Assembly (NCBI GenBank): GCA_023818695.1
Contig: JAMWCF010000001.1
Location: 275,306 to 339,305 of the forward strand
Reading direction: 5' to 3'
Source of the DNA: Candidatus Omnitrophota bacterium
GTDB lineage: Bacteria; Omnitrophota; Gorgyraeia; 1-14-0-20-64-10
Length of the DNA stretch: 64,000 nucleotides
Shown here: positions 16,845 to 40,101 of the stretch, piece by piece
Layout of the letters: the number at the start of each line of letters is the position of its first letter
How positions within the stretch are numbered: position 1 is the stretch's first letter
Made by a program: the position numbers and the translations under genes
Notes under the pieces: model-generated
Database searches by the model: none
What the model saw: the letters and a program-made list of their open reading frames with translations, nothing else
What the model was told of the DNA's origin: nothing

Positions 16845-16851
16845 GGTCTGG

Positions 16852-19502: not shown

Positions 19503-19518
19503 ACCGGTCTTAAAATCC

Positions 19519-19564: not shown

Positions 19565-19589
19565 GTGTAACTTCCGCTAACTCAAACAG

Positions 19590-20240
19590 ATGAAACCAGA
19601 TTCCTTCCGGGAATTGAAGGTTTTAGAGGAGATTTCCAGCAACACCGCCTCCACCCAGCGCCACCTGGCCCAGAAGCTCGGGGTCGCGCTGGGGCTGACC
19701 AACCTTATGATCAGGCGCTGCATTCAAAAAGGGTATCTGAAAGCGGTCAATGTCCGGAAAAACAGGATCCAATACCTCCTCACCCCAAAAGGGGTCGCCG
19801 AAAAGACCCGGTTAACCATCGAATACCTGGAATACTCCATGCACCTCTACCGCCGGGTCCGCCAGATCCTGAAGGAAACCCTGCAGGCCGTTTCGAAAAA
19901 CGGCGGGAAAACGATCGTCTTCTTCGGACGGGGGGAGCTGTCGGAGATCACCTATCTGTCCGTCAAGGAAGCCGGCCTGAATATGGTAGCGATCGTCGAC
20001 GATCAGACCTGCGGAGAATCGTTTCTCGGCCTGCCCGTCATCGAAACAAAAGCGCTGGCCCTCGTGCCGTTTGACTGCGGGATCGTCAGCTCCCTTAACA
20101 GCGGATGGGACAAGTCGAGCAAACAACTGGCCCGGTTCGGGATCCCGGAGGAAAAGATTATCGTGATCGAGCAGAATGGGGCCCAGATCAAGGCGGTCCC
20201 CTTCAAACAGAAAACGGAGCAGGAGCTGGTTCCTCTGTGA
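19590..20240 (+). CDS. Winged-helix (MarR-like, EPS-locus type) transcriptional regulator fused to a C-terminal Rossmann-like domain
   Basis: N-terminus LKVLEEISSNTASTQRHLAQKLGVALGLTNLMIRRCIQKGYLKAVNV...YLLTPKGVAEKTRL reads as a wHTH. C-terminus TIVFFGRGELSEITYLSVKEAGLNMVAIVDDQTCGESFLGLPV resembles the nucleotide-binding-like segment of sugar-transferase and CapD N-termini. Confidence 0.7.
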   Translation: MKPDSFRELKVLEEISSNTASTQRHLAQKLGVALGLTNLMIRRCIQKGYLKAVNVRKNRIQYLLTPKGVAEKTRLTIEYLEYSMHLYRRVRQILKETLQAVSKNGGKTIVFFGRGELSEITYLSVKEAGLNMVAIVDDQTCGESFLGLPVIETKALALVPFDCGIVSSLNSGWDKSSKQLARFGIPEEKIIVIEQNGAQIKAVPFKQKTEQELVPL

Positions 20241-24940: not shown

Positions 24941-25649
24941 AAAAGGACGGCTTGCCTGTCTCATACCGGCCCGGGGAGGATCGAAGAGATTCCCCGGCAA
25001 GAACATTGCTCCCTTAAGAGGCAAACCGGTGATCGGCTATGCCATCGAGGCGGCCATCGCTTCTCGCCTCTTCCCGGAGGTCTGGGTTTCAACCGACGAC
25101 CAAGCTATCACCGAGGCCGCCTCCCGCTTCGGCGCCCGGATCCATCGCAGGCCCGCGCCGCTGGCCGGGGATTCGGCCCGGCTGGCCGATGTCTGCCTGG
25201 ACTTCTCGGAATGGCTCGCCGGACAGGGAAAACCGGCTGACACCCTCTGCCTGATCCTTCCGACAGCGGCGCTGATGCTTCCGGAGGACCTGACAGGCGG
25301 GCTGGCGCTGATGAAGGAGCGGGAGGCCGATTTCTGCCAGGCGGTCACCTCTTTCATGGAGCCGCCGTTTTGGGCGATGGAGGAGAGAGGCGGGTACCTG
25401 AAGATGGTCTTCGGGGACAAATACCTGGTCGCCTCGCAGAAACTCCCCCCTGTCTGGGTCGACAGCGGCTATTTCTACTTCATGAAGCTGGATGCGCTCA
25501 AGCGGGAGAACCGGCTCTTCGGCGACAAGGCGGTCGGATGGAAGATCCCGCGGGAACGGTCGGTAGACATCGATGAGCCGGGGCACCTGGTAATCGCGGA
25601 GGCGCTGATGGAGGCGCTGGATCGGAAAAAGGCGGAGGTAGTGAGATGA
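24933..25649 (+). CDS. pseF: Pseudaminic-acid-type (nonulosonate) cytidylyltransferase
   Basis: LACLIPARGGSKRFPGKNIAPLRGKPVIGYAIEAAIASRLFPEVWVSTDDQAI follows the PseF/NeuA family pattern. Confidence 0.8.
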   Translation: MSEKGRLACLIPARGGSKRFPGKNIAPLRGKPVIGYAIEAAIASRLFPEVWVSTDDQAITEAASRFGARIHRRPAPLAGDSARLADVCLDFSEWLAGQGKPADTLCLILPTAALMLPEDLTGGLALMKEREADFCQAVTSFMEPPFWAMEERGGYLKMVFGDKYLVASQKLPPVWVDSGYFYFMKLDALKRENRLFGDKAVGWKIPRERSVDIDEPGHLVIAEALMEALDRKKAEVVR

Positions 25650-26677
25650 AGTTCCTCATCGTCGGCTGCGGCTCGATCGGCAGGCGTCATGCCTCCAACC
25701 TGCTGAAGCTCAAGGTGGGAGAGGTGATCGTCTGCGACACCGATCCGGCCCGGCTGGAAGAGATCAAGAAGGAACATGGACTCCGGGGCTTCGCCTCCTT
25801 GGAGGAGGCGCTTCGGGAGAAACCGGAGGCGGCCCTGATCTGCACGCCGACCCATCTGCATGTGCCGGCGGCGCTGGAATGCCTGAAGGCCGGCTGTCAC
25901 CTGTTCATCGAGAAGCCGGTCGCCACCTCTCTGGAGGAAGCTCGACGGCTCATTCCAGCGGCGCGCAATCGGGTCGTACTGACAGCTTGCAACATGCGGT
26001 TCCACCCAGGGGTTATTGCGCTGCATCAAAACCAAAAACTACTTCGACACCCTGTCTTATACAGAGCACGGTTCAGCCACTTTTTACCGAATTGGCGGCC
26101 GGAAACTCCCTATCAAAATACACAAAGCGCCATGACCGAACAGAGCGGGGGAATTATTCTCGAATGTATTCATGAAATCGATTATCTTCGCTGGCTGGCG
26201 GGGCCAATTAAGGGCGTGCGCGCTTTGATCAAATACGGTGTTCACAATCAAGATGAAACGCTCAAAGACATCAAGACGGCTGATTACGCGGTAGTGCTTG
26301 TTGATTTTCAATCCGGGGCAACAGGAGAGATCCGCCTGGATTACCTGCAGCATCCCAAAGAGCGCGGATGCGAAATCGTCAGCCCAGGAGACGGCTCTCT
26401 TTACTGGGGAAGCAAAAATAAACGTCCGGAGGAAGTCGTCGTATTCCACATCAGTAAGGACGGATTACCCAAACCGCTCCTTCCCCCGGATGATTCTTAT
26501 GATCCAAATGATATGTATATAAACGAGATGCGGCATTTTGTAGATTGTCTCGAAAGAAGGGCGGAACCGCTTGTCGGCCTGGATGAAGCGATAGAAACAC
26601 TTCAATGGGCGCTTGAAGCTGCGCGATATGAAATTCCAGAAGCGAAAGGGTATGTGGGCGCATCCATCTTAAAATGA
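25646..26677 (+). CDS. Gfo/Idh/MocA family oxidoreductase
   Basis: MKFLIVGCGSIGRRH Rossmann motif and CHLFIEKPVA (EKP motif). ATGA overlap upstream. The 3' two-thirds of the gene is visibly AT-richer. Confidence 0.8.
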   Translation: MKFLIVGCGSIGRRHASNLLKLKVGEVIVCDTDPARLEEIKKEHGLRGFASLEEALREKPEAALICTPTHLHVPAALECLKAGCHLFIEKPVATSLEEARRLIPAARNRVVLTACNMRFHPGVIALHQNQKLLRHPVLYRARFSHFLPNWRPETPYQNTQSAMTEQSGGIILECIHEIDYLRWLAGPIKGVRALIKYGVHNQDETLKDIKTADYAVVLVDFQSGATGEIRLDYLQHPKERGCEIVSPGDGSLYWGSKNKRPEEVVVFHISKDGLPKPLLPPDDSYDPNDMYINEMRHFVDCLERRAEPLVGLDEAIETLQWALEAARYEIPEAKGYVGASILK

Positions 26678-27294
26678 AAACAACGTCATCCAAACCCAAA
26701 AGAGCTTCAAACCAAAAGCTGAACCGCCCGTTCCTGGTCGGCAAAAGGATTTACCTTCGCCCCATGGAGATGACCGATCTGGATGGGCCGTACTTCGACT
26801 GGCTCAACGATTACGAGGTGACCCGCTTCCTGGAGACCGGCTCCTTTCCAACCACCACCGCCACACTGCGGCATTACCTGAAGAACATCGCCAAGCATCC
26901 CAACAACGTGATGCTGGCGATCATGGAGAAGAGAACCAATCGCCATGTCGGCAACGTCAAACTGGGAAACATCCACCCCCTTCACCGGAACGCCGACATC
27001 GGGATCATGGTGGGGGACAAGAGGGTCTGGGGCAAGGGGTACGGCTCGGAGGCGATGGAGCTGATGCTGGAGTATGGCTTCAAGCGGCTGAACCTTCACA
27101 AGATCACCCTGGGGGTTTACGCCGACCATGAAGGGGCGGTCAAGGCGTACAAAAAACTGGGGTTCACCGTGGAGGGTGTGCTGAAGGAGCACCTGTTCCG
27201 GGATGGCGGCTTCCGGGACAAAACGGTGATGGGGATCTTAAAGAGCGACTACGAGAGATCGAGGAGAGCCGGGGATGGCAAAAACAACGGCTGA
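26674..27294 (+). CDS. GNAT family N-acetyltransferase (RimJ/RimL-like; PseH-like role possible)
   Basis: IGIMVGDKRVWGKGYGSEAMELMLEYGFKRLNLHKITLGVYADHEGAVKAYKKLGF is an acetyl-CoA binding motif A. Confidence 0.85.
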   Translation: MKTTSSKPKRASNQKLNRPFLVGKRIYLRPMEMTDLDGPYFDWLNDYEVTRFLETGSFPTTTATLRHYLKNIAKHPNNVMLAIMEKRTNRHVGNVKLGNIHPLHRNADIGIMVGDKRVWGKGYGSEAMELMLEYGFKRLNLHKITLGVYADHEGAVKAYKKLGFTVEGVLKEHLFRDGGFRDKTVMGILKSDYERSRRAGDGKNNG

Positions 27295-28636
27295 ACCGCT
27301 CACCATCCAGGAGATCTGCCGAAACCTGATGGAGGAACCGCCGGTCCCGGTGCTGGAGCGCCGGTTGGACCGCTCCATGGAGCTCAAGCGCAGGGCCGAA
27401 AAGCTGATCCCCTCCTGCTCGCAGACCTTCAGCAAGGGGCCGTCCCAGTTCGTGCAGGGGATCGCCCCTGTCTACCTGGAAAGGGGATCCGGCTGCACCG
27501 TCTGGGATGTGGACGGCAACTCTTACCTTGACTACTGCATGGCGCTCGGTGCGGTTCTTCTTGGCTACGGGGATTCCAGGGTGTCCCAGGCGGTGTCGGT
27601 CCAGATGAAGCAGGGAACGGTCTTCACCTTAAGCCACCCTCTGGAGGTGGAGCTGTCGGAAACGCTCCGGCGGCTGATCCCCTGCGCCGAGATGGTCCGG
27701 TTCGGCAAGAACGGCTCCGACGTCACCTCGGCGGCGGTCCGGCTGGCGAGGGGATTCACCGGCAGGGAGATGATCGCCTGCTGCGGCTATCACGGCTGGC
27801 AGGACTGGTACATCGGGGCGACAACCCGCAACAGGGGAGTACCGGAACCGGTAGCCCGGCTGACAAAGACATTCAAATACAACGACCTGGGATCGCTGGA
27901 AGAACTATTCCGTCAGTATCCCGGTAAAATCGCCGCGGTGATCATGGAGCCGGTGGGCCTTGTGGAACCGAAGCCGGGGTTCCTGGAAGGGGTGCAGAAG
28001 CTGGCTCGGAAAAACGAAGCCCTGCTTGTCTTCGACGAGATGGTGACCGGGTTCCGGTTCGGCACGGGGGGCGCGCAGCAATATTTCGGGGTGACGCCGG
28101 ACATGGCCTGCTTCGGCAAGGGGATGGCCAACGGGATGGCGGTCTCGGCGATCGTGGGACGCCGGGATGTGATGGAGCTGTTCGACGAGATCTTCTTTTC
28201 CTTCACCTTCGCCGGAGAGACCGCCTCGCTGGCCGCGGCGCTGGCCACCCTGCAGGCGCTGGAAGAGCCCGGAGTCCTGGAAGGAATCTGGGCCCGGGGC
28301 CGGCAAATCCAGGAAGGGTACAACCTGCTGGCCGAATCATACGGCTTGAAAGGAGAAACCGAGTGCGTCGGCCTTCCCCCCCGGACCGGCATCTCTTTCC
28401 ATCCGGATGAAACGGCGCTGGCGATGAAAACCTTCGTCCAGCAGGAGTGCATCAAGAGGGGATATCTTTTCACAGGCGCCCACAATCTCTGCGCGGCCCA
28501 CAACGAGCAGGCCGTCGAATCGGTCTTGCGAATCTACCGGACGGTCCTGGAACTTTTGGCGGCCCGGATCAGGGACGGGGCCTTGCTCTGCTCCCTCGAA
28601 GGGCCGGTGATTCAGCCGGTCTTCAGAAAGATGTGA
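27275..28636 (+). CDS. Class-III aminotransferase (glutamate-1-semialdehyde aminomutase-like)
   Basis: SQTFSKGPSQF, GSDVTSAAVRLAR, LVFDEMVTGFR, and CFGKGMANGMAVSAIVG (PLP-Lys context). Confidence 0.85.
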   Translation: MAKTTAEPLTIQEICRNLMEEPPVPVLERRLDRSMELKRRAEKLIPSCSQTFSKGPSQFVQGIAPVYLERGSGCTVWDVDGNSYLDYCMALGAVLLGYGDSRVSQAVSVQMKQGTVFTLSHPLEVELSETLRRLIPCAEMVRFGKNGSDVTSAAVRLARGFTGREMIACCGYHGWQDWYIGATTRNRGVPEPVARLTKTFKYNDLGSLEELFRQYPGKIAAVIMEPVGLVEPKPGFLEGVQKLARKNEALLVFDEMVTGFRFGTGGAQQYFGVTPDMACFGKGMANGMAVSAIVGRRDVMELFDEIFFSFTFAGETASLAAALATLQALEEPGVLEGIWARGRQIQEGYNLLAESYGLKGETECVGLPPRTGISFHPDETALAMKTFVQQECIKRGYLFTGAHNLCAAHNEQAVESVLRIYRTVLELLAARIRDGALLCSLEGPVIQPVFRKM

Positions 28637-28638
28637 CG

Positions 28639-29766
28639 ATGACGGACACAACCCCTTTCATCGAGATCAACGGGCGAAAGATTGGGCCCGGTTTTCCGGT
28701 CTACGTGGTGGCCGAGATCTCCTGCAACCACAACGGTTCCTTTGACAGGGCGGTCGAGCTGATCCGGCTGGCAAAGGAGGCCGGTGCCGACGCCGCCAAG
28801 TTCCAGACCTACACCGCCGACACGATCACCATCGACTCGGAAGAGCAATGGTTCCAGATCCGGCATGAGAGTCTCTGGGAAGGCAGGAATCTTTACGACC
28901 TGTACCGGGAGGCCCACACCCCCTGGGAATGGCAGCCGAAGCTGAAGAAGATAGCGCAAGAGACCGGGATCGATTTCTTCTGCTCCCCGTTCGACCCGAC
29001 CGCCGTCGATTTCCTGGAGAAGGAGGTGGGGGTGCCGGCTTACAAGGTGGCCTCCTTTGAGATCGTGGACATCCTCCTGATCCAGAAGATCGCCGCGACA
29101 GGCAAACCGATGATCCTCTCCACCGGCCTGGCCAACTTCCGGGAGATCGCCGAGGCGGTCCAGGCGGCCCGCCAGGCCGGCTGCAGACAAGTCGCCCTCT
29201 TGAAATGCACCAGCAACTACCCGGCGAAGCCGTCCGAGATGAAGATTTCCTCGATACCGCACCTGGCCCGGGCTTTCCACTGCCCGGTCGGGCTGTCGGA
29301 CCACACCCTGGGAAGCGAGGTGGCCCTCGGCGCGGTGGCGCTGGGCGCCTGCATTGTGGAGAAACATCTGACCCTCTCCAGGAAGGAGGGGGGACCGGAC
29401 GCCGGTTTCTCGCTGGAGCCGGGGGAGTTCGCCGACCTGGTGCAGGGGGTCCGGACGGTGGAGCAGGCGATCGGGACCCCGGACTATAAGCTGACGCTGG
29501 AAGAAGAGAAAAATCTGATGTTCCGCCGCTCTTTGTTCGTGGTGGCCAACATGAAGGCGGGTGAAACCTTCACGCCTCAAAATGTCCGCTCGATCCGGCC
29601 GGGGCACGGCCTGGCCCCGAAACATCTTCCACTTGTGCTCGGAAAGAAGGCGGCCCGGAATATCCGCCGCGGCACGCCGCTGGACTGGACGCTGATCGTC
29701 TCCAGCCCCGTAGATGATAAAAATGACGAACCAATCGACCGAAAAAGAGAACTCGACGCTGTTTGA
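28639..29766 (+). CDS. pseI: Pseudaminic acid synthase (PseI, NeuB family with SAF domain)
   Basis: VYVVAEISCNHNGS, AKFQTY, SLWEGRNLYDLYREAHTPWEW (PseI-typical), YKVASFE, LSTGL, LKCTSNYP, GLSDHT, VEKHLTL..GGPD. ATG 28639 lies 2 nt after the upstream stop. Confidence 0.85.
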   Translation: MTDTTPFIEINGRKIGPGFPVYVVAEISCNHNGSFDRAVELIRLAKEAGADAAKFQTYTADTITIDSEEQWFQIRHESLWEGRNLYDLYREAHTPWEWQPKLKKIAQETGIDFFCSPFDPTAVDFLEKEVGVPAYKVASFEIVDILLIQKIAATGKPMILSTGLANFREIAEAVQAARQAGCRQVALLKCTSNYPAKPSEMKISSIPHLARAFHCPVGLSDHTLGSEVALGAVALGACIVEKHLTLSRKEGGPDAGFSLEPGEFADLVQGVRTVEQAIGTPDYKLTLEEEKNLMFRRSLFVVANMKAGETFTPQNVRSIRPGHGLAPKHLPLVLGKKAARNIRRGTPLDWTLIVSSPVDDKNDEPIDRKRELDAV

Positions 29767-30922
29767 GAGCGCTCAAAAGCTTAAGCGGTGCGTCCGCTGT
29801 CTCCTGGCGGAAACGCACGACACCATCCTCTTCGATGCCGAAGGAGTCTGCAACATCTGCCGGAACATCGAGCACAAGAAAGAGGTCATCGACTGGCCGG
29901 CAAAGGAAAAGGAGTTCCGGGAGATCCTCGACCGGTACCGGGGCAAGCACGCTTACGACTGCATCATCCCCTTCAGCGGGGGAAAGGACAGCGCCTACAC
30001 CGCCTACGCCCTGGTCAGAAATTACGGCGTCAAGCCGCTGGTCGTCTGCTTCGACCACGGCTTCATGCGGCCGACCGTCTTGGCCAACACCGAGAAGACG
30101 ATCCGGGCGTTGGGGGTCGACTTCTTGAAGTTTCGGGCCGGCTGGAAGGTGGTCCGGCGGCTCATGGTGGAAAGCTTGAAGCGCAAAGGGGACTTCTGCT
30201 GGCACTGCCACACCGGCATCTTCTCATTCCCCATGCAGATGGCGATCCGGTTCCAGGTGCCTCTGGTGATCTGGGGGCAGCCAAACACCGAATACAACGC
30301 CTATTTCCGAATGGATGAGCCGGAGCTGGTCGATGAAAAGCGGTACAACCGGTACATCAACCTGGGGATCACCGCCGAAGACATGGCCGGGATGCTGGGA
30401 CCGGAGATCGATGCGAGGGACCTGGAGCCGTTCCGCTACCCACCGAAGGAGGAGCTGAAGAAGCTCGGCTACCGTTCCATCTGCATGGGGACCTATATCC
30501 CCTGGGACGTCAAAAAACAGGTGGAGATTATCGAAAAGGAGCTCGGCTGGCAGGAGGACGCGGTAGAGGGGGTCCCCCCGGAATACGGTTACGAGAAGAT
30601 CGAATGTTTCCTGCAGGGGGTCCGGGATTACCTGCGCTTTATCAAGCGGGGGATGGGCCGGACGAACCACCTGGCCTGCATCGACATCCGGGACGGACGC
30701 CTGACGCGGGAAGAGGGAGAGCGCCTGATGCGGGAGTTCGACGGCAAGCGGCCGGCCTCTCTCGACGTCTTCCTGAAGATGGTCGAGATCACCGAAGAGG
30801 AGTTCAATAAGATCGCCCTTGAGCATGCAGTCTATCCCCATCAGCCGGACTTGAGCAGCGTGGAGAAGGGGCAGCCGCTCTGGGACCAACAATTCTGGCT
30901 GATTCCCGGGAAGAAAGAATGA
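29714..30922 (+). CDS. N-acetyl sugar amidotransferase (PP-loop ATPase; WbpG/PseA/WbuX-like), copy 1
   Basis: Zinc-ribbon-like CVRC...CNIC, PP-loop PFSGGKDSAY, and CWHCH. Followed by HisH/HisF homologs, as in known acetamidino-sugar loci. Start may be ATG 29714 or 29723. Confidence 0.85.
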   Translation: MIKMTNQSTEKENSTLFESAQKLKRCVRCLLAETHDTILFDAEGVCNICRNIEHKKEVIDWPAKEKEFREILDRYRGKHAYDCIIPFSGGKDSAYTAYALVRNYGVKPLVVCFDHGFMRPTVLANTEKTIRALGVDFLKFRAGWKVVRRLMVESLKRKGDFCWHCHTGIFSFPMQMAIRFQVPLVIWGQPNTEYNAYFRMDEPELVDEKRYNRYINLGITAEDMAGMLGPEIDARDLEPFRYPPKEELKKLGYRSICMGTYIPWDVKKQVEIIEKELGWQEDAVEGVPPEYGYEKIECFLQGVRDYLRFIKRGMGRTNHLACIDIRDGRLTREEGERLMREFDGKRPASLDVFLKMVEITEEEFNKIALEHAVYPHQPDLSSVEKGQPLWDQQFWLIPGKKE

Positions 30923-32361
30923 AAGTCACGATCATCGACTACGGGATGGGGAACTTGAGTTCGGTAGCGAGGGCCTTCGAATCCCTCAACGCCGAGGTGC
31001 AGGTGACCAACAGCCCCGCCGACATCGAGAGGGCGCAGCGGCTTGTCCTGCCGGGCGTGGGGGCCTTCGGTCAGGGGATGAGGAACCTGGAGCGGCTTGG
31101 CCTGCGACAACCGCTTGAGAAGGCGGTACTCCACGCGAAAACCCCCTTGCTGGGGATCTGTCTGGGCATGCAGCTGATGGCGAAAGAGAGCTGGGAACAG
31201 GGGCGGCACCAGGGACTCGGCTGGGTGCCGGCCGCCGTCAAGCCCTTCCAGGGAAACGGCTCGCTGAAAACAATCCATATCGGCTGGAACGAGGTGGTGC
31301 CGGCAAGGCCGAGCTTCCTCTTCAAGGGTCTGCGGCGCGTCCCTTACTTCTATTTTGTTCACGGCTACCATGTCACCTGCGAGGAACCGGACGCAGTGGC
31401 CGCCACCTCTACGTACGGCGGCCCGTTCCATTCGGCGCTCGCCGCGGGAAACATCGCCGGTGTCCAGTTCCACCCGGAGAAGAGCCAGGAGGCGGGGCTC
31501 GGCCTGCTGAAGAACTTTCTGAACTGGAACCCAGACGCCGATGAAGAGACTCCGATGGATTCCCTGAAACCGAACGGAAAAGGGGCCCCAAACCTGCGGC
31601 TGATCCCAACTCTTCTCTATTACAAAGGCCGGTTGACGAAAACGATCAGGTTCCAGATCCAGAATGAGGGGATCCGAAGGGATGTGGGGCACCCGGTCAA
31701 GGCCCCGATGGTTTACGATGCTCAATTGGCCGACGAGCTGATCTTCCTGGATTTCCGGGCGACGGTTGAAGGGCGGGGGATCGAGGAACTGCGAGGGGCA
31801 GTTGCAGAGATCGCCGGGCGGGCCTTCATGCCGCTGACAGCCGGAGGAGGAATCCGGTCCGTGGAGGATATCCGATCGCTGCTTCTGGCCGGGGCCGACA
31901 AGGTGGCGATCAACAGCGCCGCGGTGGAGCGGCCTGATCTCATCTGGGAAGCGGCCGGGGTCTTCGGGAGCCAGTGCATTGTGGTCTCCATCGACGCCAA
32001 GAGGACGGGGGACCGGTATGAAGTTTTCACGCGTAGCGGGACAACCCCAACAGGTCTGGACCCGGCCGAGTGGGCCAAAAAAGCAGAAGGGCTTGGAGCC
32101 GGGGAAATCCTCCTGACATCCATCGACCGGGACGGCACGATGGCGGGCTATGACCTGGAGCTGATCCGCCGGGTGGCATCGGCCGTCAAGATCCCGGTGA
32201 TCGCTTCCGGCGGCTCCGGCACACTGCGAGACCTGGCCGACGCGGCGATCCAGGGAGAGGCATCAGCGGTGGCAGCCGCCTCGATCTTCCACTTCCGGGA
32301 CGTCAGTCCCATCAAGGCGAAGGCCTTTTTGAAGCGGGTACCGCTTCCAATCAGGGATTGA
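30919..32361 (+). CDS. Fused HisH-HisF-like imidazole-glycerol-phosphate-synthase homolog (glutaminase plus cyclase domains in one 480-aa polypeptide)
   Basis: The N-terminal domain has LPGVGAFG, GICLGMQ (catalytic Cys) and QFHPEKS. A linker of about 25 aa (NWNPDADEETPMDSLKPNGKGAPN) follows. The HisF-like barrel then has LIPTLLYYKGR, GGGIRS, DKVAINSAAV and ASGGSG. The reading frame is uninterrupted. Confidence 0.85.
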   Translation: MKVTIIDYGMGNLSSVARAFESLNAEVQVTNSPADIERAQRLVLPGVGAFGQGMRNLERLGLRQPLEKAVLHAKTPLLGICLGMQLMAKESWEQGRHQGLGWVPAAVKPFQGNGSLKTIHIGWNEVVPARPSFLFKGLRRVPYFYFVHGYHVTCEEPDAVAATSTYGGPFHSALAAGNIAGVQFHPEKSQEAGLGLLKNFLNWNPDADEETPMDSLKPNGKGAPNLRLIPTLLYYKGRLTKTIRFQIQNEGIRRDVGHPVKAPMVYDAQLADELIFLDFRATVEGRGIEELRGAVAEIAGRAFMPLTAGGGIRSVEDIRSLLLAGADKVAINSAAVERPDLIWEAAGVFGSQCIVVSIDAKRTGDRYEVFTRSGTTPTGLDPAEWAKKAEGLGAGEILLTSIDRDGTMAGYDLELIRRVASAVKIPVIASGGSGTLRDLADAAIQGEASAVAAASIFHFRDVSPIKAKAFLKRVPLPIRD

Positions 32362-32365
32362 GCAG

Positions 32366-33025
32366 ATGATCGCGCTGGTGGATTACGGGATGGGGAACTT
32401 GAGGTCGGTGGCCAACGCCTTCGAGGCGATTGGCGAAAAACCGGTGATCACTCATTCCAGGGCGGAGATCGAGTCGGCCGCCGGGATCGTCCTGCCGGGC
32501 GTGGGGGCCTTCGGCGACGGGATGAAGAACCTGCGCCGGCTGGAGCTGATCGAGACACTTAACAGAGAGGTGTTGGAAAAGAAGAAACCGTACCTGGGAA
32601 TCTGTCTCGGCATGCAGTTTCTCACAGATGAGAGCGAAGAACACGGGCTCCACAAGGGGTTCGGCTGGATCAAAGGCCGGATCCGGGAGATCAAACCGGC
32701 AGACAAGCGGTACAAAGTTCCCCATATGGGATGGAACGAGCTGCAAATCCTCAAGGAAGGGGGGCTCTTTCAGGGGCTTCCGGAAGCGCCGGTCTTCTAC
32801 TTCGTCCACAGCTACCATCTCGAGCCGGCGGAACCTGGAGTCATCACAGCGGTCTGCCGCCATGGGGCCGAGGTGACGGCGGCAGTGGAAAAGGAAAATA
32901 TCGTTGGAGTCCAGTTCCACCCGGAGAAAAGCCAGCGGGTGGGACTGCAGCTTCTGAAAAATTTCGTCCGGATGGTCAAAGAGCATGCTGAAAAAACGGC
33001 TGATACCTGTTCTCATCCTGCGTGA
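32366..33025 (+). CDS. HisH-like glutamine amidotransferase subunit (WbuY-like)
   Basis: MIALVDYGMGNLRSV, LPGVGAFG, GICLGMQ, QFHPEKS. Confidence 0.9.
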   Translation: MIALVDYGMGNLRSVANAFEAIGEKPVITHSRAEIESAAGIVLPGVGAFGDGMKNLRRLELIETLNREVLEKKKPYLGICLGMQFLTDESEEHGLHKGFGWIKGRIREIKPADKRYKVPHMGWNELQILKEGGLFQGLPEAPVFYFVHSYHLEPAEPGVITAVCRHGAEVTAAVEKENIVGVQFHPEKSQRVGLQLLKNFVRMVKEHAEKTADTCSHPA

Positions 33026-33737
33026 CGGGCAGGTCGTCCAGAGCATCCAGTTCAGGCACACCAATGTGATCCATTGGAATCCGGTCACCGCGGTGGATTT
33101 TTTCAACAAGTGGGCGGTGGATGAGATCCTCCTGCTGGATGTCAGCCGGACGACGGAAAACCGGCAGAAATTTTACGATGCAGTCCACACGCTCTCGGCG
33201 AAATGTTTCGTCCCTCTGACCGTCGGCGGATGGGTGACCAGCACGGAGGAGATCCGGAAACTCCTGCGGCTCGGGGCGGACAAGGTCTCCGTCAACACGC
33301 AGGCGGTCCGGCACCCCGAGTTCATCTCCGAGGCGGCTCAAATCTTCGGAAGCCAGTGCATTGTGGTGTCGATCGATGTCAAAAAGATCGACGGCGCCCG
33401 CCGGGTGGTGATCGACCGGGGACGGGAAATCACGGAGCTGGCGCCGGTCGAATGGGCGAGGGAAGCCGAAAAGCGGGGGGCGGGGGAGATCTTCCTAACC
33501 TCCATTGACCACGACGGCACCCGCAGCGGCTATGACCTGGAGCTGATGCGCCAGGTCTCACATGCGGTTTCGATCCCGGTGATCGCCTTCGGAGGGGCGT
33601 TCGCCTGGGAACATCTGGCGGAAGGAATTTTGGCAGGCGCTGAAGCGTGCGCCGCCGCCAACGTCTTCCATTTCACGGAGCACAGCACCAAGAAGGCCAA
33701 GGAACACTTGAGAAAGGCAGGGATTGAGGTCCGATGA
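32985..33737 (+). CDS. HisF-like cyclase subunit (WbuZ-like)
   Basis: LIPVLILRDGQVV, VGGWV (GGGI position), DKVSVNTQAV, and IAFGGA with a C-terminal phosphate-binding pattern. Overlaps the HisH-like gene by 41 nt. Confidence 0.9.
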   Translation: MLKKRLIPVLILRDGQVVQSIQFRHTNVIHWNPVTAVDFFNKWAVDEILLLDVSRTTENRQKFYDAVHTLSAKCFVPLTVGGWVTSTEEIRKLLRLGADKVSVNTQAVRHPEFISEAAQIFGSQCIVVSIDVKKIDGARRVVIDRGREITELAPVEWAREAEKRGAGEIFLTSIDHDGTRSGYDLELMRQVSHAVSIPVIAFGGAFAWEHLAEGILAGAEACAAANVFHFTEHSTKKAKEHLRKAGIEVR

Positions 33738-35047
33738 GATATTGCCAGCGGTGTCTTTATCCTGAAAACGCCAAACCGACGATCATCTTCGATGAGCAGG
33801 GAATCTGTAGCGGCTGCCGACACCACGAGTCCCGGGGCCGAATCGACTGGACCGAGCGGGAGAAAAAACTGCGCACACTCCTGACGGAGTACCGGGACAA
33901 GCAAAGGGCCGCCGGGGCCATTTACGACTGCATCGTGCCAGTGAGCGGTGGCAAGGACAGTCACTTCCAGGTCTACCTGATCAAGGAGGTCTACGGGCTC
34001 AACCCCCTGTGCGTTACCTTCAACCACTGCTTCAATACCTCGCTGGGACTGCGCAACCTGAACAACCTGATCAGCCGGTTCGGCGTCGACCTGATCCGGT
34101 TCACCGCCAACCCGGAGTCTGTCCGGAAAATCGCCAGGTACATGGTAAAAAGAGTCGGGGATATCACCTGGCATTACCACGCCGGGATCATGACGGTCCC
34201 GTTCCAGGTGGCGGTGAAATACAAGGTTCCCCTGATCGTCTGGCCGGAGCATTACGGGGAGCTGACCGGCGTCTTCACGCTGGACGACATGGTGGAGTTC
34301 ACCAAGTGGGTGCGGCAGGAGCATGACATGCGTGGCATCGAGCCGGAAGATATCGCCAATGATCCGGCCAGCGGGATCACGATGCGGGACCTGTATCCTT
34401 ACATCTACCCGACCGATGAAGAGCTGGAGGAGGTCGGGGTCCGGGGAATCTACCTGGTCAACTACATCTATTGGGATCCCAAGGCCCAGTCGGAGCTGGT
34501 GCTGGAGAAGTGCGGGTTCCAGCCGCTGGCCCGTAAAAGAGACCGGACTTTTCATCTCTGCGCGAAAACCGACGATCATGCCAACGAGGTGCACGACTAC
34601 ATGAAGTATCTGAAGTTCGGATACGGCCGGGCAACCGATGACGCCTCTACCGAGATCCGCTACGGCCGAATGACCCGGGAAGAGGGGATCGAGGTGGTCC
34701 GGGAGTACGACCATGTCAGGCCGAAATCGCTCGACTATTACTTGAAGTTCCTGGGAATGACGGAATCGGAGTTCGAGGGGGCGCTGGAGCCGATGAGGGA
34801 CAGGAGGATCTGGAAAAAGGGGCCGGACGGCAGGTGGGCGATAACCGATTCGGTGATCAACCACCAGGATGATCCCGGGGTGGAGGCGGCCAGGGTGTCG
34901 CAGTCGAAGGACCGGACATTCTCCAGGGAAAACAGCCGGCTTTATTACAACCCGAAATACCCGCCGGTTCTGCCGGAGATGGCGGCGCCATCCAACGGCA
35001 ACGGACACGGAGCCACCGTGAAAGAAGAAGGATTCGTGATCCAGTGA
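33734..35047 (+). CDS. N-acetyl sugar amidotransferase (PP-loop ATPase; WbpG/PseA/WbuX-like), copy 2
   Basis: CQRC...CSGC, PP-loop PVSGGKDSHF, and WHYH. A divergent paralog of copy 1, colinear but with clearly different sequence. ATGA overlap upstream. Confidence 0.85.
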   Translation: MRYCQRCLYPENAKPTIIFDEQGICSGCRHHESRGRIDWTEREKKLRTLLTEYRDKQRAAGAIYDCIVPVSGGKDSHFQVYLIKEVYGLNPLCVTFNHCFNTSLGLRNLNNLISRFGVDLIRFTANPESVRKIARYMVKRVGDITWHYHAGIMTVPFQVAVKYKVPLIVWPEHYGELTGVFTLDDMVEFTKWVRQEHDMRGIEPEDIANDPASGITMRDLYPYIYPTDEELEEVGVRGIYLVNYIYWDPKAQSELVLEKCGFQPLARKRDRTFHLCAKTDDHANEVHDYMKYLKFGYGRATDDASTEIRYGRMTREEGIEVVREYDHVRPKSLDYYLKFLGMTESEFEGALEPMRDRRIWKKGPDGRWAITDSVINHQDDPGVEAARVSQSKDRTFSRENSRLYYNPKYPPVLPEMAAPSNGNGHGATVKEEGFVIQ

Positions 35048-35958
35048 CGCCGATCTGTCCCGCCTGCAAGGCGGATAAAACATCCCTCTCGAAAGATGCC
35101 GGCAGACCTCCATACCGCTTCTATGAATGCGGCGAGTGCCGCCTGGTCTTCTCCAACCCGATGCAGCCGGTCAACGGCCGGTGGTACAGCCGGCAAGCGA
35201 TGTACGTCGTACGGGACAATTTCGGAACAGGCGAGCTCCAGTGGAACCACCGGCAGTTTCTCAAAGACCTTCCGGCCGCCGGCGGCCGACTGCTGGACGT
35301 CGGCTGCGGGACCGGAGAGTTCTTGGCCGCCGCCCGTCAAGCCGGCTACCTGGTGAGCGGTTTCGACTTCGATGCCGAAGCGGTCAAGACAGCGCGACAG
35401 AGGACCGGAATCAATGAGATAACCACCGGGGACCTGGCGCAGTTTTCCGGAAAGGAGCGGACGAGACGTTTTGACGTGGTGACCGCCTTTGAAGTGCTGG
35501 AGCACTCCCCGGAACCGGACCGGTTCCTGGCCTCTCTGACCGAATTGATCGCTCCCAACGGCTATCTGGCCATCAGCGTGCCTGACAGGGAAAGGCGGCC
35601 TCGGATCCGGTACGACTGGGACTTTCCGCCGAACCACTTAACACGCTGGAGCAGGGGATCACTGGCGCACATTATCCAGAGAAACGGCCTTCGGATCGTC
35701 CGAATGGAAAGTGGATGGAGGCAGGGAGAACCGCTTCTTCACCAAACATTGCAGTTCGGCCTGGTTACCCGCTTGATGGGAGCCGGTTCTCCTTCCGGCG
35801 GCGGCAGAGGCGTTTCCCGCCATGCGGCCTCCACCGCTTACAAGGTGAAATCAGCGGCAGTGAAAATACTGGCTGTGCCGGTCAATCTCGGTTTAAGCGC
35901 CATCGGGGCGACGGGGATGACCCTCTACCTGCTGGCGCAGAAAAACAATGTCAACTGA
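35044..35958 (+). CDS. Class I SAM-dependent methyltransferase with N-terminal zinc-ribbon
   Basis: CPAC...CGEC ribbon, then the SAM motif LLDVGCGTGEFL and VVTAFEVLEH. GTGA overlap with amidotransferase copy 2. Confidence 0.8.
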   Translation: MTPICPACKADKTSLSKDAGRPPYRFYECGECRLVFSNPMQPVNGRWYSRQAMYVVRDNFGTGELQWNHRQFLKDLPAAGGRLLDVGCGTGEFLAAARQAGYLVSGFDFDAEAVKTARQRTGINEITTGDLAQFSGKERTRRFDVVTAFEVLEHSPEPDRFLASLTELIAPNGYLAISVPDRERRPRIRYDWDFPPNHLTRWSRGSLAHIIQRNGLRIVRMESGWRQGEPLLHQTLQFGLVTRLMGAGSPSGGGRGVSRHAASTAYKVKSAAVKILAVPVNLGLSAIGATGMTLYLLAQKNNVN

Positions 35959-37090
35959 TACGCAAAAAACAAAACTGATGCTTCTGATCTCCAGCGGCGC
36001 GTTGGGCGGTGGAGAGGAGACGGTCCGCCTGCTGGCCGTCTATCTCGATAAAAACCTTTTTGACATCACTGTCGTCTGCCCGGCATCCCCTCTATCCGAG
36101 TCGCTGCAGGGGATTCCCGGCGTCGCCTGCCGCACCGCCTGGTTCCCCCGGCTCCCGACCCCGAAGGCGGTCTCCCAACTGACCAACCTCATCCGGGAGG
36201 TCAGACCGGATATCCTGCACACCCATCTTTACCACGGCGACCTTTACGGCTGGCTAGCCACCAGGAAAGCCCATGTTCCCCGGCTGGTCTCGACGGTGCA
36301 GGGGGTCAACTTCTTCTGGGAGATGGAGCGGGGAATCCGCCGCCTGCGCTGGCGTCTCTGCTCCTTGCTCTACCGGCAGATTTACCGGGCTTTCGACGCG
36401 GTCGCCGTCTGCAGCAGCGCCGTCAGAGAACAGATCACAACCAGACCGGGGATTAGGATCCCGGCCGGGAAGATCACGGTGATCCACAACAGCATGGACC
36501 CGGAGAAGCTTCGGGCCGCTTTGGAAAAAGGCGCGGCCACCAGGCAAAACGGGAGATCCAAACGAATCATTTCGGTCGCTAATCTCCTCCCATTCAAGGG
36601 GCACGAGGTCCTCTTGGAGGCGGTGAACCGGCTCCGCTCCATGCTCGACGTCGAATGCCTAATCGTCGGGGAAGGACCGGAGCGCAAGCGGCTGGAAACC
36701 CGATGCAGGGAACTGGGCATTGAAAAGCGGGTCCGGTTCCTTGGAAGCAGGCCGGACGTCGTGAATCTGCTTCACGACAGCGATCTGTTTGTCCTGCCCT
36801 CCCTATGGGAGCCGTTTGGCATCGCTATTGTGGAAGCAATGGCGGCGGGCATCCCGGTGGTTGCCGCTGGAGGCGGCGGGATCCCGGAAATCATCCAAGA
36901 TGGGGTGAACGGCCTCCTGGTCCGGCCCGGAGACCCGGAAGCGCTTGCGGCGAATATCCGGAAGCTCCTTTCCGCCTCTTCCGTCAGGACGGCATTGACC
37001 AAGCACGCGAAAGAAACCGTTCAGAAAAATTTCGGCGCTCCATCGATGGCGGCGGCTTACGCCGGTTGGTATGGCGGAATCCATCGGTGA
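35948..37090 (+). CDS. Glycosyltransferase family 4 (GT-B, group 1)
   Basis: LLISSGALGGGE, and LPSLWEPFGIAIVEAMAAGIPVVAAGGGGIPEIIQDG. Confidence 0.85.
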   Translation: MSTDTQKTKLMLLISSGALGGGEETVRLLAVYLDKNLFDITVVCPASPLSESLQGIPGVACRTAWFPRLPTPKAVSQLTNLIREVRPDILHTHLYHGDLYGWLATRKAHVPRLVSTVQGVNFFWEMERGIRRLRWRLCSLLYRQIYRAFDAVAVCSSAVREQITTRPGIRIPAGKITVIHNSMDPEKLRAALEKGAATRQNGRSKRIISVANLLPFKGHEVLLEAVNRLRSMLDVECLIVGEGPERKRLETRCRELGIEKRVRFLGSRPDVVNLLHDSDLFVLPSLWEPFGIAIVEAMAAGIPVVAAGGGGIPEIIQDGVNGLLVRPGDPEALAANIRKLLSASSVRTALTKHAKETVQKNFGAPSMAAAYAGWYGGIHR

Positions 37091-37096
37091 ATTGAT

Positions 37097-38617
37097 ATGC
37101 TCGTAAAAACAATCGCACGTCAATCGCTTCACAGTGGGCTCTTCTATGGGTGTTACACACTTTCCCGACTTCTTCTGGCTGTGGCGCTTGGCAAGTCCCT
37201 CACCTCCAGGGAGTACGGAACTTACAGTCTGATCGGCTCCCTGTCAGCCATGAGCGGGGCGACCACTTTAAGCGCCTTTCAATATTTCAACCGGCATGTT
37301 CCGGGAAGAGAACTCCGGGAAGGACTCTCTCTCTTTAAGAGTGTCCTCGTGCCGCAGACCATTCTGTTGACGACGGCGTTCGCGTTCCTCTTTTTCTTTT
37401 CAGGTTTGCGTGGCGAGTTCGCCAGAATCATGGAGATCAGCTCACAGCCCGCCTTATTTTTATTGATAGCAGCCATCCTGCTGCTTGATGGAATTGCCAC
37501 TGAGTTTATGCGATACCTTTACGCCAGAAAGGAGATCGAGCGAGGCAACATCGTGACCTTCTTTCAGAACAGTTTTTGGGCCTTTTTACTTTTCCTGCTT
37601 TTCCTAGCCACCCCACAATGGATCGATTTTCTGGTTGTTCTCAATGTGTGGTTGGCAGGGCTGATTCTGGCCGTTGGCTACAGCATCTGGAAAACCGGCT
37701 TCAAGGATCTCCTGAAGGTTCCATGGAGCATGGGCACCTATATGTCAGCTATCCGGTTTGGCCTGCCGTTTATTATGACTTATTCGGCATCGACGGCACT
37801 TTCTTTCGGCCGTTTCTTCCTGGCTGGAATTCATTCGGCGGAGGAGGTCGGCATTTTTTCTTATCACTACAATATCATCGCCATGATCGGCGCCCTCTCC
37901 TCGCCTCTGATCGGCAACCCGATCGACCCTTACGCCGTTGAGGCTTACAATCACGGCCGCTATGAACACAGCAGCATTTTGCTGACCGCTTCTTTGAAAT
38001 ACCGCCTTTTCCTGGTCATCCCACTGCTGACGGCTGCGGCTTCCTGCAGCGAGTCTTTGATCCGCTTCCTGGCAAAGGAGCAATTCGTCGCGTCGCCATG
38101 GCTGCTTTTTTCCATGGTTCCGATTCCGGTCCTCCTAACCCTGGCCAGCTCCTTGGAGCGGATTTATTTCCTGGAAAAGAGGATGGCCATCGCCGGCTTG
38201 TGCCATCTGGCCGGTGGTATCGTTCAGGTGGCCGCTTTCCCCCTCCTGATCCCCATTCATCCGCTGTACGGCATCGTCACCGCCATAAACGTTGGCCTCC
38301 TCATCCAAACGGTCTTTCTTTGGACATTCTCAAGAGGGGGGCAACTTTCCATTCAAACAAACGGCTGGAAAATGTTCCTTGCTACCGTCATCTCCGGCAT
38401 AACGGGCTGGATAATCTCCCGAACCACCATTTTATTCCCCCCCGCAATCGCGTTGATACTGGCGGCCAGCTCCGCCGTCATCGGCTTCATCATTCCGATT
38501 TTTTTCCTCCGGCTGCTCCCGCCATCTGAATTTAAAGCCCTGCATGGAATCATTCGAGGCAAAGATGGCGAAAAAAAGAAGGAACAACCATTGGCCGCCG
38601 CATCGCTGGAGGGATGA
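37097..38617 (+). CDS. wzx: Wzx-like oligosaccharide flippase (MOP superfamily polysaccharide biosynthesis protein)
   Basis: 506 aa with 12-14 hydrophobic segments and no soluble domain. The N-terminal pattern is typical of Wzx-type proteins. Lower GC than its neighbours, as is common for wzx. Confidence 0.65.
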   Translation: MLVKTIARQSLHSGLFYGCYTLSRLLLAVALGKSLTSREYGTYSLIGSLSAMSGATTLSAFQYFNRHVPGRELREGLSLFKSVLVPQTILLTTAFAFLFFFSGLRGEFARIMEISSQPALFLLIAAILLLDGIATEFMRYLYARKEIERGNIVTFFQNSFWAFLLFLLFLATPQWIDFLVVLNVWLAGLILAVGYSIWKTGFKDLLKVPWSMGTYMSAIRFGLPFIMTYSASTALSFGRFFLAGIHSAEEVGIFSYHYNIIAMIGALSSPLIGNPIDPYAVEAYNHGRYEHSSILLTASLKYRLFLVIPLLTAAASCSESLIRFLAKEQFVASPWLLFSMVPIPVLLTLASSLERIYFLEKRMAIAGLCHLAGGIVQVAAFPLLIPIHPLYGIVTAINVGLLIQTVFLWTFSRGGQLSIQTNGWKMFLATVISGITGWIISRTTILFPPAIALILAASSAVIGFIIPIFFLRLLPPSEFKALHGIIRGKDGEKKKEQPLAAASLEG

Positions 38618-40101
38618 TGACCGAGGGAAAAACCCCTCTGCGCTGTCTGGCCTACATGGCGGGGAACTCCACGCCGTTCTTCATCAGCATAATGGAGGCC
38701 TTCGTCGAGCGGATGGGCAGCCGCGTCTCGGAGCTGACGATTCTAGTCGGAGACCGTTACCAGTTCCTTCAGGCGAAAAAGCGGTCTTTGAATGTAAAAA
38801 TTCGGCTGATCTATCAGCATGAGCGGTTTAACCCGTTTCACGCGCCGATGCCCGACACGACCCGCTTGGCGCAACTGGAACAACGATACGGCATCCCGAA
38901 CCTCTGGCGGTATGTGCTGGCCCAGCGGATGATCGATCCCCTGCCGCACGATAGAAAAACCGCCTATCTAGCCGCCTACCTGGAATATTATGAAGCCCTG
39001 TTCCATAAAACGCGGCCGGATGTTTTCATTACCGGAGGACAAGACTCCCTGCCTTTTCTGGCAGCGCACGAGGTGTTTAAACGAAACGGAGCGATCCCTC
39101 TCATTCTGACGCCTGGATGGATCCCTGGATGGGTCTTCGTGGTGGACAACGAATATCTCCGGATCCCGGGCGTTCCGGAGTTGTACGAATCACTGAAGGG
39201 ACGGGAGTTGACACCGGAAGAAAAGGCCATCGCGGCGCAGATCCGGGATAGCTACCTGGTGAAGAAAATCCGCCCTACCGCTTTCCTGGCGGGGCATTCG
39301 ATCCCGGCGGTCCCCTCTCCGCTGCGTTTTCTGAAGATCCTCGCCAGGCGAATCCGGTATGAGGACCGGTACTTCGACGCGCCGTTGAAGGAAAACATGA
39401 AGCGGTCGGTCTTGGTTCGGGCCCGGATGCCGTTCCAAAAAGCTGTTTACCAACGACTGTCGCACACGTCGGCGACAGAAAAAAACGCTCTTTACTACCC
39501 GCTCCATTACGAGCCGGAAGCGAGCATCGACGTGCTCGGCACCCCGTACCGAGACCAGCTGGAGCTGATTGAGCGGATTGCCTCCTGCCTTCCGGTCAAC
39601 TGCACCCTTTACGTGAAGGAACATCCCCACATGAACCCGGGGGCCAGACCAATCGGCTTCTATCGGAAACTAGCCCGGATCAACGGGGTGAAGCTGCTGG
39701 ACCAGGGAATCAACGGGCACGAAGTGATCTGGCGGTGCAAAGGAGTGGTGACGATCGCCGGCACAACCGGCTTCGAGGCCCTCTTCTATGGAAAACCGGT
39801 CCTTCTAATGGGACACACCTTCTATGAAGATTTCAGGGAAGGGATCTTCACGCCGGGAAGCTGGGAAAAGATGGTCACAACGTTGAAAGAAATGGTCTCC
39901 TTCGCCGGTTTCGATCCGGTGCTACTGGACAAGTTCGTCGTGGCGGTGATCAAAAGAAGTTTCCCGGGACTCAACGAGATCACGGCCCCCGGCTACGACG
40001 AACCGGAAAATCACGCGGCCCTGGCAAAAGCGCTCGAAACAGAGTTGGAATTCAGAGCGGGAAAGGAGAAGATCGGTGAGACGGCTTGTATGCCGGCTTG
40101 A
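38614..40101 (+). CDS. Capsule_synth (KpsS/KpsC-like) family protein, candidate ulosonic/nonulosonic acid transferase (paralog 2)
   Basis: YYPLHYEPEASID..., LYVKEHPHMNPG, VVTIAGTTGFEALFYGKPVLLMGHTFYE. ATGA overlap with wzx. Confidence 0.75.
   Translation: MMTEGKTPLRCLAYMAGNSTPFFISIMEAFVERMGSRVSELTILVGDRYQFLQAKKRSLNVKIRLIYQHERFNPFHAPMPDTTRLAQLEQRYGIPNLWRYVLAQRMIDPLPHDRKTAYLAAYLEYYEALFHKTRPDVFITGGQDSLPFLAAHEVFKRNGAIPLILTPGWIPGWVFVVDNEYLRIPGVPELYESLKGRELTPEEKAIAAQIRDSYLVKKIRPTAFLAGHSIPAVPSPLRFLKILARRIRYEDRYFDAPLKENMKRSVLVRARMPFQKAVYQRLSHTSATEKNALYYPLHYEPEASIDVLGTPYRDQLELIERIASCLPVNCTLYVKEHPHMNPGARPIGFYRKLARINGVKLLDQGINGHEVIWRCKGVVTIAGTTGFEALFYGKPVLLMGHTFYEDFREGIFTPGSWEKMVTTLKEMVSFAGFDPVLLDKFVVAVIKRSFPGLNEITAPGYDEPENHAALAKALETELEFRAGKEKIGETACMPA

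Follow-up and report, generated by a model that had tools for sequence, protein, structure and literature searches.

Two probable acetamidino-forming modules of separate ancestry in a nonulosonic-acid glycan cluster of a Candidatus Omnitrophota bacterium

Five consecutive genes near the middle of a 64,000-nt stretch of a Candidatus Omnitrophota genome (contig JAMWCF010000001.1; the whole stretch is called the window here, and positions are counted from its first letter) encode two sets of enzymes of the kind that form acetamidino groups on sugars. Each set comprises an N-acetyl sugar amidotransferase (NASAT, here X), a HisH-like glutaminase and a HisF-like barrel. The first-pass annotation, made from the sequence alone, had described the order X1-(HisH-HisF)-HisH-HisF-X2, and all of these open reading frames were found where it had placed them, on the + strand. 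Module A consists of X1 (29714-30922, with a likely start at 29723 according to the gene caller) and a fused HisH~HisF gene (30919-32361), a single reading frame of 480 aa with the Pfam domains GATase and His_biosynth. Module B consists of the glutaminase HisH2 (32366-33025, 219 aa), the barrel protein HisF2 (32985-33737, 250 aa, best match WbuZ TIGR03572) and X2 (33734-35047). We consider it likely that these are two complete acetamidino-forming modules, inherited independently and standing side by side in one operon of a nonulosonic-acid/capsule-type glycan cluster, with NASATs that act on different N-acetyl groups.

Directly downstream, an S-adenosylmethionine (SAM)-dependent methyltransferase gene (35044-35958, + strand; Methyltransf_23 and related families), a candidate amidine N-methyltransferase, starts in overlap with the X2 stop codon. 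Between X1 and the methyltransferase, consecutive genes overlap at four of five junctions, the exception being the 4-nt gap between the fused gene and HisH2. A scan of positions 19000-38900 for + strand promoter and terminator signals found none inside the block above shuffle expectation. HisF2 begins within HisH2, the last 41 nt of which (32985-33025) are shared by both genes, and the fused copy lacks an equivalent of the C-terminal tail of about 13 residues in HisH2. The two halves had been described as a mirror. This holds for the X genes, which are at opposite ends, and not for the rest, since the HisH-HisF order is the same in both halves and all genes are on one strand; the arrangement is an X-HisH-HisF module beside a HisH-HisF-X module of opposite internal order. 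No further NASAT, HisH or HisF homologue was found elsewhere in the 64-kb window.

Both X proteins score above the curated cut-off (203.2 bits) of the NASAT profile, NCBIfam TIGR03573 (WbuX, N-acetyl sugar amidotransferase), with 354.4 bits for X1 and 365.7 bits for X2, while a Pfam scan gave no matching model for either. The NASAT family is marked by a PP-loop, SGGxDS, and a zinc tetracysteine motif, and LpNASAT (PDB 8WEX) is its sole solved member (PMC10607449). In X1 the PP-loop SGGKDS is encoded at 29975-29992 (residues 88-93) and the motif CxxC...[GN]xCxxC at 29789-29860 (residues 26-49), and in X2 the corresponding positions are 33944-33961 (residues 71-76) and 33743-33817 (residues 4-28). 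X2 matches 8WEX at an E value of 2e-45. Profiles and motifs together bear out the earlier assignment of both proteins to the PP-loop amidotransferases, and of the trio to the acetamidino-forming NASAT/HisH-like/HisF-like system.

The HisH parts pass the curated HisH model (TIGR01855, cut-off 105.4 bits), the fused copy with 218.0 bits and HisH2 with 243.6 bits. Their glutaminase triads are intact (Cys81, His185 and Glu187 in the fused copy; Cys80, His185 and Glu187 in HisH2), and the GICLGMQ and HPE motifs are present in both. Of the HisF-like parts, WbuZ (TIGR03572) is the best-scoring family, with 270.1 bits for the fused copy and 272.0 bits for HisF2, and the AglZ/HisF2 family (NF038364) is among the top matches, with 230.9 and 232.1 bits. 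In alignments with HisF proteins of solved structure, the position of the cyclase residue Asp11 is occupied by Leu233 in the fused copy and by Ile in HisF2. This replacement follows gene context among the loci that we fetched: the column holds L, I, M, V or T in 70 of 71 HisF homologues from loci carrying a NASAT, and Asp is kept in 21 of 27 from loci without one. Asp130 is kept in both window copies, as are the channel-gate motifs RLIP, ADKV and GAGEI with the gate Arg, Lys and second Glu; the first gate Glu is also readable in the sequences. Two glycine-rich motifs are altered in HisF2, GGG to GGW and SGGAG to FGGAF. Because the cyclase aspartate has been lost, both HisF copies are read from their residues as ammonia channels without cyclase activity rather than as histidine-pathway enzymes.

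The fused protein consists of a glutaminase (residues 1 to about 202), a variable linker (about 203-226) and a HisF-like barrel (227-480). It has 25 full-length homologues at 58-73% identity, so that the single-chain architecture is found in 26 sequences, and in their alignment the linker of about 22 residues is conserved in length and variable in sequence. An AlphaFold (AF2) model of the protein has a predicted local distance difference test score (pLDDT) of 92.3 and a predicted template-modelling score (pTM) of 0.92. Superposed on the fused His7 of yeast (1OX4 and 1JVN), the model gives query-normalised template-modelling scores of 0.85-0.86 and root-mean-square deviations of 3.5-3.7 Å over both domains. 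The protein is thus predicted to fold like a fused imidazole glycerol phosphate (IGP) synthase, with its domains in the arrangement of that enzyme.

The two NASATs are only 39% identical, and each one has closer relatives elsewhere. X1 is 48-60% identical to the NASATs of X-HisH-HisF trios in other phyla, and relatives in its clade at 48-65% identity are widespread. X2 belongs to a large clade of proteins of about 433 aa, found in at least 120 clusters at 60-86% identity, and is 61-68% identical to the X proteins of HisH-HisF-X modules that stand alone in Desulfobacca, in Curtissbacteria and elsewhere. The HisH proteins of these stand-alone modules are 55-61% identical to HisH2 and 45-51% to HisH1, and their HisF proteins are 62-69% identical to HisF2 and 43-45% to HisF1. 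Since the stand-alone modules resemble HisH2, HisF2 and X2 more than the neighbouring copies in the window do, these three genes have travelled together, and the earlier description of the ammonia-channelling partners as duplicated does not stand. In a neighbour-joining tree the X1 clade has a bootstrap value of 77 and the X2 clade one of 89, values near 89 being the ceiling here owing to saturated distances in some replicates. Comparison of the clades shows 33 positions that are fixed within each one and differ between them, and 55 that are conserved in both. X1 and X2 are therefore not recent duplicates, in line with the first-pass annotation.

X1 carries four further cysteines, C162, C165, C257 and C298, which are invariant in 11 of 11 X1-clade loci and in at least 90% of 79 sequences. 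The set is absent from the X2 clade, from the NASATs of pseudaminic-acid (pse) clusters and from every other NASAT sampled. Two of the four flank the family-wide motif G-D-x-x-W-H-x-H, where a C-W-H-C motif is encoded at about 30197-30208. To judge from this pattern, the quartet may form a second, clade-specific metal site.

The union of the two modules recurs. The composite is found in at least nine distinct loci: the window, L003, L083, L084, L085, L089, L094, the P0021 contig and L171; L085 and L097, and probably L093 and L094, are the same sequence from different archives, and each pair was counted once. The nine span at least two phyla, with L003 being a Planctomycetia metagenome-assembled genome (MAG) and L171 an Omnitrophica MAG. 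The nearest genome to the window is that of L003, an uncultured organism, with a fused protein 73% identical and a cluster that is collinear over more than 20 kb; a protein identical to the one encoded at our locus occurs on metagenome contigs of two runs. All nine composites contain the fused HisH~HisF gene, which is present in only one of 37 loci with X1 alone (L095, which belongs to the same subclade and lacks module B). The link between fusion and doubling is suggestive only, because all fused genes of the composites form one clade and represent one evolutionary event. In L171 (GCA_016192545.1, 796-10320), two 375-aa genes lie between HisH2 and HisF2, and a GDSL-lipase gene and a PhyH gene lie between HisF2 and X2, so that the genes of module B need not be adjacent. 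Two other loci, L006 and L037, join an X1-type trio to a second trio in independent arrangements. Natural variants thus include module A alone with a fused supplier (L095) or with separate genes, module B alone, and both modules together.

Each module also has its habitual neighbours. Counts were taken from loci of at least 10 kb, of which 37 contain module A without an X2-type gene (A-only) and five contain only module B (B-only). The usual A-only order is pseB-pseC-(Gfo oxidoreductase)-class III aminotransferase-pseG-pseI-X-HisH-HisF-GNAT, and the class III aminotransferase is found in 29 of the 37 A-only loci and in none of the five B-only loci. Conversely, a 347-aa NeuB-like gene is present in four of the five B-only loci and in a single A-only locus, on a truncated contig. 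The B-only loci (Desulfobacca, Curtissbacteria and three others) have a full pse gene set with HisH-HisF-X straight after pseI, and in three of the five a methyltransferase gene lies immediately 3′ of X. In the window both kinds of neighbour are found together, in a conserved block of six + strand genes upstream of the two modules (23897-29766) that is recognized by profile matches and by gene order in relatives, the order being the same in L003, L083, L084, L085 and L089. The block consists of a divergent NeuB-like synthase of 347 aa (23897-24940), a PseF-like cytidine monophosphate (CMP)-sugar synthetase (24933-25649), a Gfo/Idh/MocA oxidoreductase (25646-26677), a GNAT protein (26674-27294), a class III aminotransferase resembling glutamate-semialdehyde aminomutase (27275-28636) and PseI (28639-29766).

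The first-pass annotation had also pointed to identical nucleotide runs shared by the two HisH genes. The 26-nt run (31045-31070 and 32489-32514, + strand) and the 20-nt run (30940-30959 and 32384-32403, + strand) are exact, each occurs only at its two sites, and neither was matched in any of 100 shuffles. That list was real and incomplete, since a third HisH run of 20 nt (31462-31481 and 32909-32928, + strand) and a HisF run of 20 nt (32146-32165 and 33528-33547, + strand) exist. The longest exact runs are thus 26, 20 and 20 nt in the HisH pair, 20, 17 and 15 nt in the HisF pair and at most 13 nt in the X pair. All four listed runs lie on conserved motifs: VLPGVGAFG (the 26-mer), DYGMGNL, or YGMGNL (30940-30959), and VQFHPEK (31462-31481) in HisH, and GYDLELI in HisF. 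Both HisH 20-mers are also present in the HisH1 orthologue of L003, in another genome, and so are shared across genomes with a paralogue. This points to motif conservation combined with a shared strong codon bias, and the runs lose their value as a sign of recent duplication. The 26-mer is absent from both L003 copies, with HisH1 differing at five synonymous positions and HisH2 at many; it is at most a weak hint of a short micro-conversion tract, and chance is an equally possible explanation.

These data bear on the proposal that the X-HisH-HisF unit was duplicated locally in tandem, leaving redundant copies in which the runs are remnants of the duplication or signs of ongoing gene conversion, a history that we regard as very improbable. 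In its favor, the 26-mer is specific to this lineage, and the HisH and HisF runs exceed a simple codon-usage simulation (P 0.004 for HisH and 0.03 for HisF). That first null model, based on average codon usage, overstated the significance of the runs, and we replaced it with a conditional shuffle that holds the overall synonymous similarity fixed; under the latter the HisH pair is marginal (P about 0.016 before any correction for three tests), and neither the HisF pair nor the X pair reaches significance. The first-pass annotation had contrasted clearly different amidotransferases with similar HisH copies, a contrast that disappears on measurement. Protein identities are only 39% for the X pair, 48% for the HisH pair and 46% for the HisF pair, and the synonymous differences (pS) are practically equal at 0.58, 0.575 and 0.589. 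The Nei-Gojobori dS between the paralogues is about 1.1, near saturation, a value that shows the pairs not to differ and that cannot date the split. Among the residues that agree within a pair, the share that also has the same codon is likewise similar (58% for X, 59% for HisH and 54% for HisF, with about 44% expected). Together with the closer relatives of each copy in other phyla and the two 20-mers common to the L003 orthologue, these values speak for separate origins. Even less credible, and in our view next to impossible, is that the HisH and HisF genes serve histidine biosynthesis in this organism and merely happen to lie in the cluster. Both HisH copies do pass the curated HisH model, the HisF domain of the fused protein is 51% identical to the housekeeping HisF of L023, and the HisF copies score almost as well on the housekeeping model (TIGR00735; 250.0 and 251.3 bits, both below its cut-off of 294.55) as on WbuZ. 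Against this stand the replacement of Asp11 by Leu and Ile, which is the pattern of NASAT-linked copies, and the conservation of the genes within a glycan block in nine loci; moreover, neither hisA, hisB nor any other his gene was found in the 64-kb window. The earlier view that these are not housekeeping genes is upheld.

It is also hard to believe that one of the modules is a decaying relic, leaving only a single amidination. Beyond the altered HisF2 motifs GGW and FGGAF nothing was found in favor of decay, and those motifs bind substrates of the histidine pathway and would not be needed here. All reading frames are intact, as are the catalytic triads, the PP-loops and the zinc motifs, and the five genes are under purifying selection. 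Their dN/dS ratios (nonsynonymous to synonymous substitution) against orthologues are 0.04-0.15 in every comparison that yielded an estimate of dS; HisH2 is saturated against L003 and L085. A more serious alternative, although still an unlikely one, is that both modules function and their ammonia suppliers are interchangeable, in which case the doubling would have come about simply because ready-made modules were acquired, and the fusion would not serve as insulation. It is favored by the single evolutionary event behind the composite fused genes, by Campylobacter jejuni, where one hisH/hisF-like pair accompanies both PseA and PtmG, and by three Bacteroidota MAGs (L019, L021 and L060) in which two NASATs flank one HisH-HisF pair in the order X-HisH-HisF-X. 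The NASATs of these three loci are distant, at about 24% identity, and one ammonia supplier apparently serves two amidotransferases in these lineages, so that dedicated pairing is not obligatory in the NASAT family. Interchangeable suppliers are less easily reconciled with HisF2 and X2 co-varying as a unit across phyla, with the specific contact between HisF2 and WbpG in Pseudomonas (PMC11445079), or with the purifying selection on both sets in every composite locus examined. Besides the X-HisH-HisF-X loci, several observations weigh against two independently inherited modules with different acceptors. Both HisF-like proteins fall below the curated cut-offs of WbuZ (299.7 bits) and of AglZ/HisF2 (310 bits). 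The X2 clade is sister to the NASATs of canonical pse clusters at a bootstrap of only 63, and both X clades are tied to pathways by gene-context proxies rather than by characterized PseA, PtmG, WbpG, WbuX or LfnA proteins; the acceptors proposed for X1 and X2 likewise come from gene neighborhood only. Finally, the X1-clade loci L028 and L034 are in NeuC-containing, legionaminic-like clusters, so that the clade is not tied to one pathway. A legionaminic-type assignment of the X1 clade, which these two loci had suggested, was dropped when a larger metagenome sample showed mostly pse-type neighborhoods.

If the two modules work as their homologues do, the HisH-like glutaminase of each would hydrolyze glutamine, and the ammonia would pass through a HisF-like barrel without cyclase activity. 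A docked NASAT would use its PP-loop and ATP to activate the carbonyl of a sugar N-acetyl group, with release of AMP and pyrophosphate, and ammonia would then replace the oxygen to give an acetamidino group. Each NASAT would presumably draw on the HisF barrel of its own module. In Pseudomonas aeruginosa a contact between HisF2 and WbpG was found by pull-down and delivery of ammonia to the NASAT was proposed (PMC11445079), and the ATP dependence of LpNASAT was inferred from its structure (PMC10607449).

The suggestion of two acceptor specificities, made in the first-pass annotation, gains support from the sequence comparisons: it is favored by the separate ancestry of X1 and X2, their different habitual neighbors, the clade-specific positions and the combinations in L006 and L037. 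To judge from gene context, the most likely target of X2 is N5 or N7 of a pseudaminic-type acid, and that of X1 is a different acetamido group. The latter may be the one made by the Gfo oxidoreductase, the class III aminotransferase and the GNAT protein. Pairwise fusions of these three are found in relatives, a Gfo~aminotransferase of 779 aa in L084 (2355-4694) and also in L089, and a GNAT~aminotransferase in L093/L094; they suggest consecutive steps of oxidation, transamination and acylation. In L085 the GNAT protein is replaced by a formyltransferase.

The methyltransferase downstream of X2 may, by analogy, N-methylate the new amidine. PtmH/ORF8 is known to N-methylate the 5-acetimidoyl group of CMP-legionaminic acid (PMC3766260). 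Homologues of the window methyltransferase (56-58% identity) are found directly after X2 in L003, L085 and L094, and non-orthologous methyltransferases of different subfamilies occupy this position in L084, L086, L087 and L170. No methyltransferase was found just after X2 in L083, L088 and the P0021 contig. A more detailed reading, which we offer as speculation with the odds against it, combines these elements. The product would be one pseudaminic-type acid with two amidines, one of them N-methylated or placed on an extra amino group supplied by the Gfo/class III aminotransferase/GNAT enzymes; the fusion would have been fixed to stop mis-pairing of co-expressed paralogous glutaminase/channel systems; and the X1 clade would carry a second, four-cysteine metal site. 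Two different nonulosonic acids are equally possible as products, since the window encodes three NeuB-family synthases and two CMP-sugar synthetases.

The same trio of NASAT, HisH-like glutaminase and HisF-like barrel is known from the O5 B-band locus of P. aeruginosa as WbpG with HisH2 and HisF2 (PMC11445079; PMC10607449). The supply genes of the WbpG pathway resemble the habitual companions of X1, which encode a Gfo oxidoreductase, a class III aminotransferase and a GNAT protein. In P. aeruginosa an oxidoreductase, an aminotransferase and an acetyltransferase make an acetamido group that is then amidinated by WbpG. The Pseudomonas system has one module and a uridine diphosphate (UDP)-hexuronic acid acceptor, whereas the window has two modules in a nonulosonic-acid cluster, with one HisH/HisF pair fused. 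Among the sampled loci, HisH-HisF-X-type NASATs that belong to none of the X1, X2 and PseA-like clades are only 22-28% identical to X1 and X2. The archaeon Methanococcus maripaludis requires the trio AglX/AglY/AglZ for the acetamidino group of its flagellin N-glycan. AglXYZ is like the window trio, and the AglZ/HisF2 family NF038364 is one of those that both HisF copies match below cut-off; the archaeal acceptor is a hexuronic acid.

Campylobacter provides a precedent for two NASATs working side by side. Campylobacter jejuni has PseA and PtmG and a single hisH/hisF-like pair, whereas in the window each NASAT has its own. In C. jejuni and C. coli, two NASATs encoded in one glycosylation island give the acetamidino forms of pseudaminic and legionaminic acids, and a methyltransferase beside PtmG gives the N-methylacetimidoyl form (PMC3766260; PMC3958885). 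The proteins concerned are PseA (Cj1316c, with Cj1315c and Cj1314c) and PtmG-PtmH. X2 groups, at the bootstrap of 63 given above, with the NASATs of canonical pseB-pseC-pseG-pseI clusters, and X1 is in a separate clade. Several NASATs per genome are also known from Vibrio vulnificus as well as Campylobacter (PMC10607449). LpNASAT of Legionella pneumophila (PDB 8WEX) shares the fold family, the PP-loop and the zinc tetracysteine motif (PMC10607449). It acts on polylegionaminic acid, the amidine of which is N-methylated by the lipopolysaccharide ORF8 methyltransferase (PMC3766260). In the Legionella-type locus L016 the gene order is HisH-HisF-X; the NASAT encoded there belongs to a distant clade and is about 22-28% identical to X1 and X2. 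The fused protein, finally, has the domain order of yeast His7 (1JVN and 1OX4), glutaminase N-terminal and barrel C-terminal, and the same predicted arrangement; it differs in the lost cyclase Asp, in being an independent bacterial fusion, and in a predicted role in sugar amidination rather than histidine synthesis.

The 64-kb window is essentially a single glycan-biosynthesis region. NeuB-family genes are located at 2363-3403, 23897-24940 and 28639-29766, cytidylyltransferase (CMP-sugar synthetase) genes at 1537-2340 and 24933-25649, and a NeuC-like gene at 3390-4550. The 347-aa NeuB-like protein (23897-24940) reaches the curated cut-off of neither NeuB nor PseI and accompanies X2 modules alongside an ordinary PseI. 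Inside the nonulosonic-acid block, a NodU-like carbamoyltransferase gene (about 22185-23900), conserved in L003, L083 and L096, hints at an O-carbamoylated sugar. A radical SAM/SPASM gene (40052-41149, - strand) lies between two Capsule_synth (KpsC/KpsS-like) genes (38614-40101 and 41158-42666); this trio is also found in L083, and in L170 a radical SAM/SPASM gene lies 3′ of the X2-methyltransferase pair. The gene at 49384-51351 adds a third kind of amidotransferase to the glycan region, a glutamine amidotransferase of the asparagine-synthase type; such enzymes often amidate uronic acids. The region further contains a Wzt-type ATP-binding cassette (ABC) transporter ATPase with a Wzt_C domain at the start of the window (83-1633) and two PMT_2/ArnT-like membrane glycosyltransferases (16759-18123 and 44183-45436).

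Acetamidino and N-methylacetamidino groups on nonulosonic acids alter surface charge, and they shape recognition by antibodies, phages and hosts in Campylobacter and Legionella. The enzymology is of a kind already known from WbpG/HisH2/HisF2, PseA with Cj1315c/Cj1314c, PtmG-PtmH, AglXYZ and LpNASAT, and the gain is therefore incremental unless the product is a new sugar. What is new is a conserved operon that unites two self-contained modules, the His7-like fusion of an ammonia supplier, and the expectation of a sugar that is amidinated more heavily; a literature search of one collection returned no paper in which a nonulosonic acid with two amidines is named. The two-module operon predicts that the surface sugars of Planctomycetia- and Omnitrophica-like bacteria would be amidinated beyond any described structure that we found. 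Loci with module A alone, module B alone or both, and with fused or unfused suppliers, constitute a natural experiment on how NASATs choose their acceptors and whether each one needs a channel of its own.

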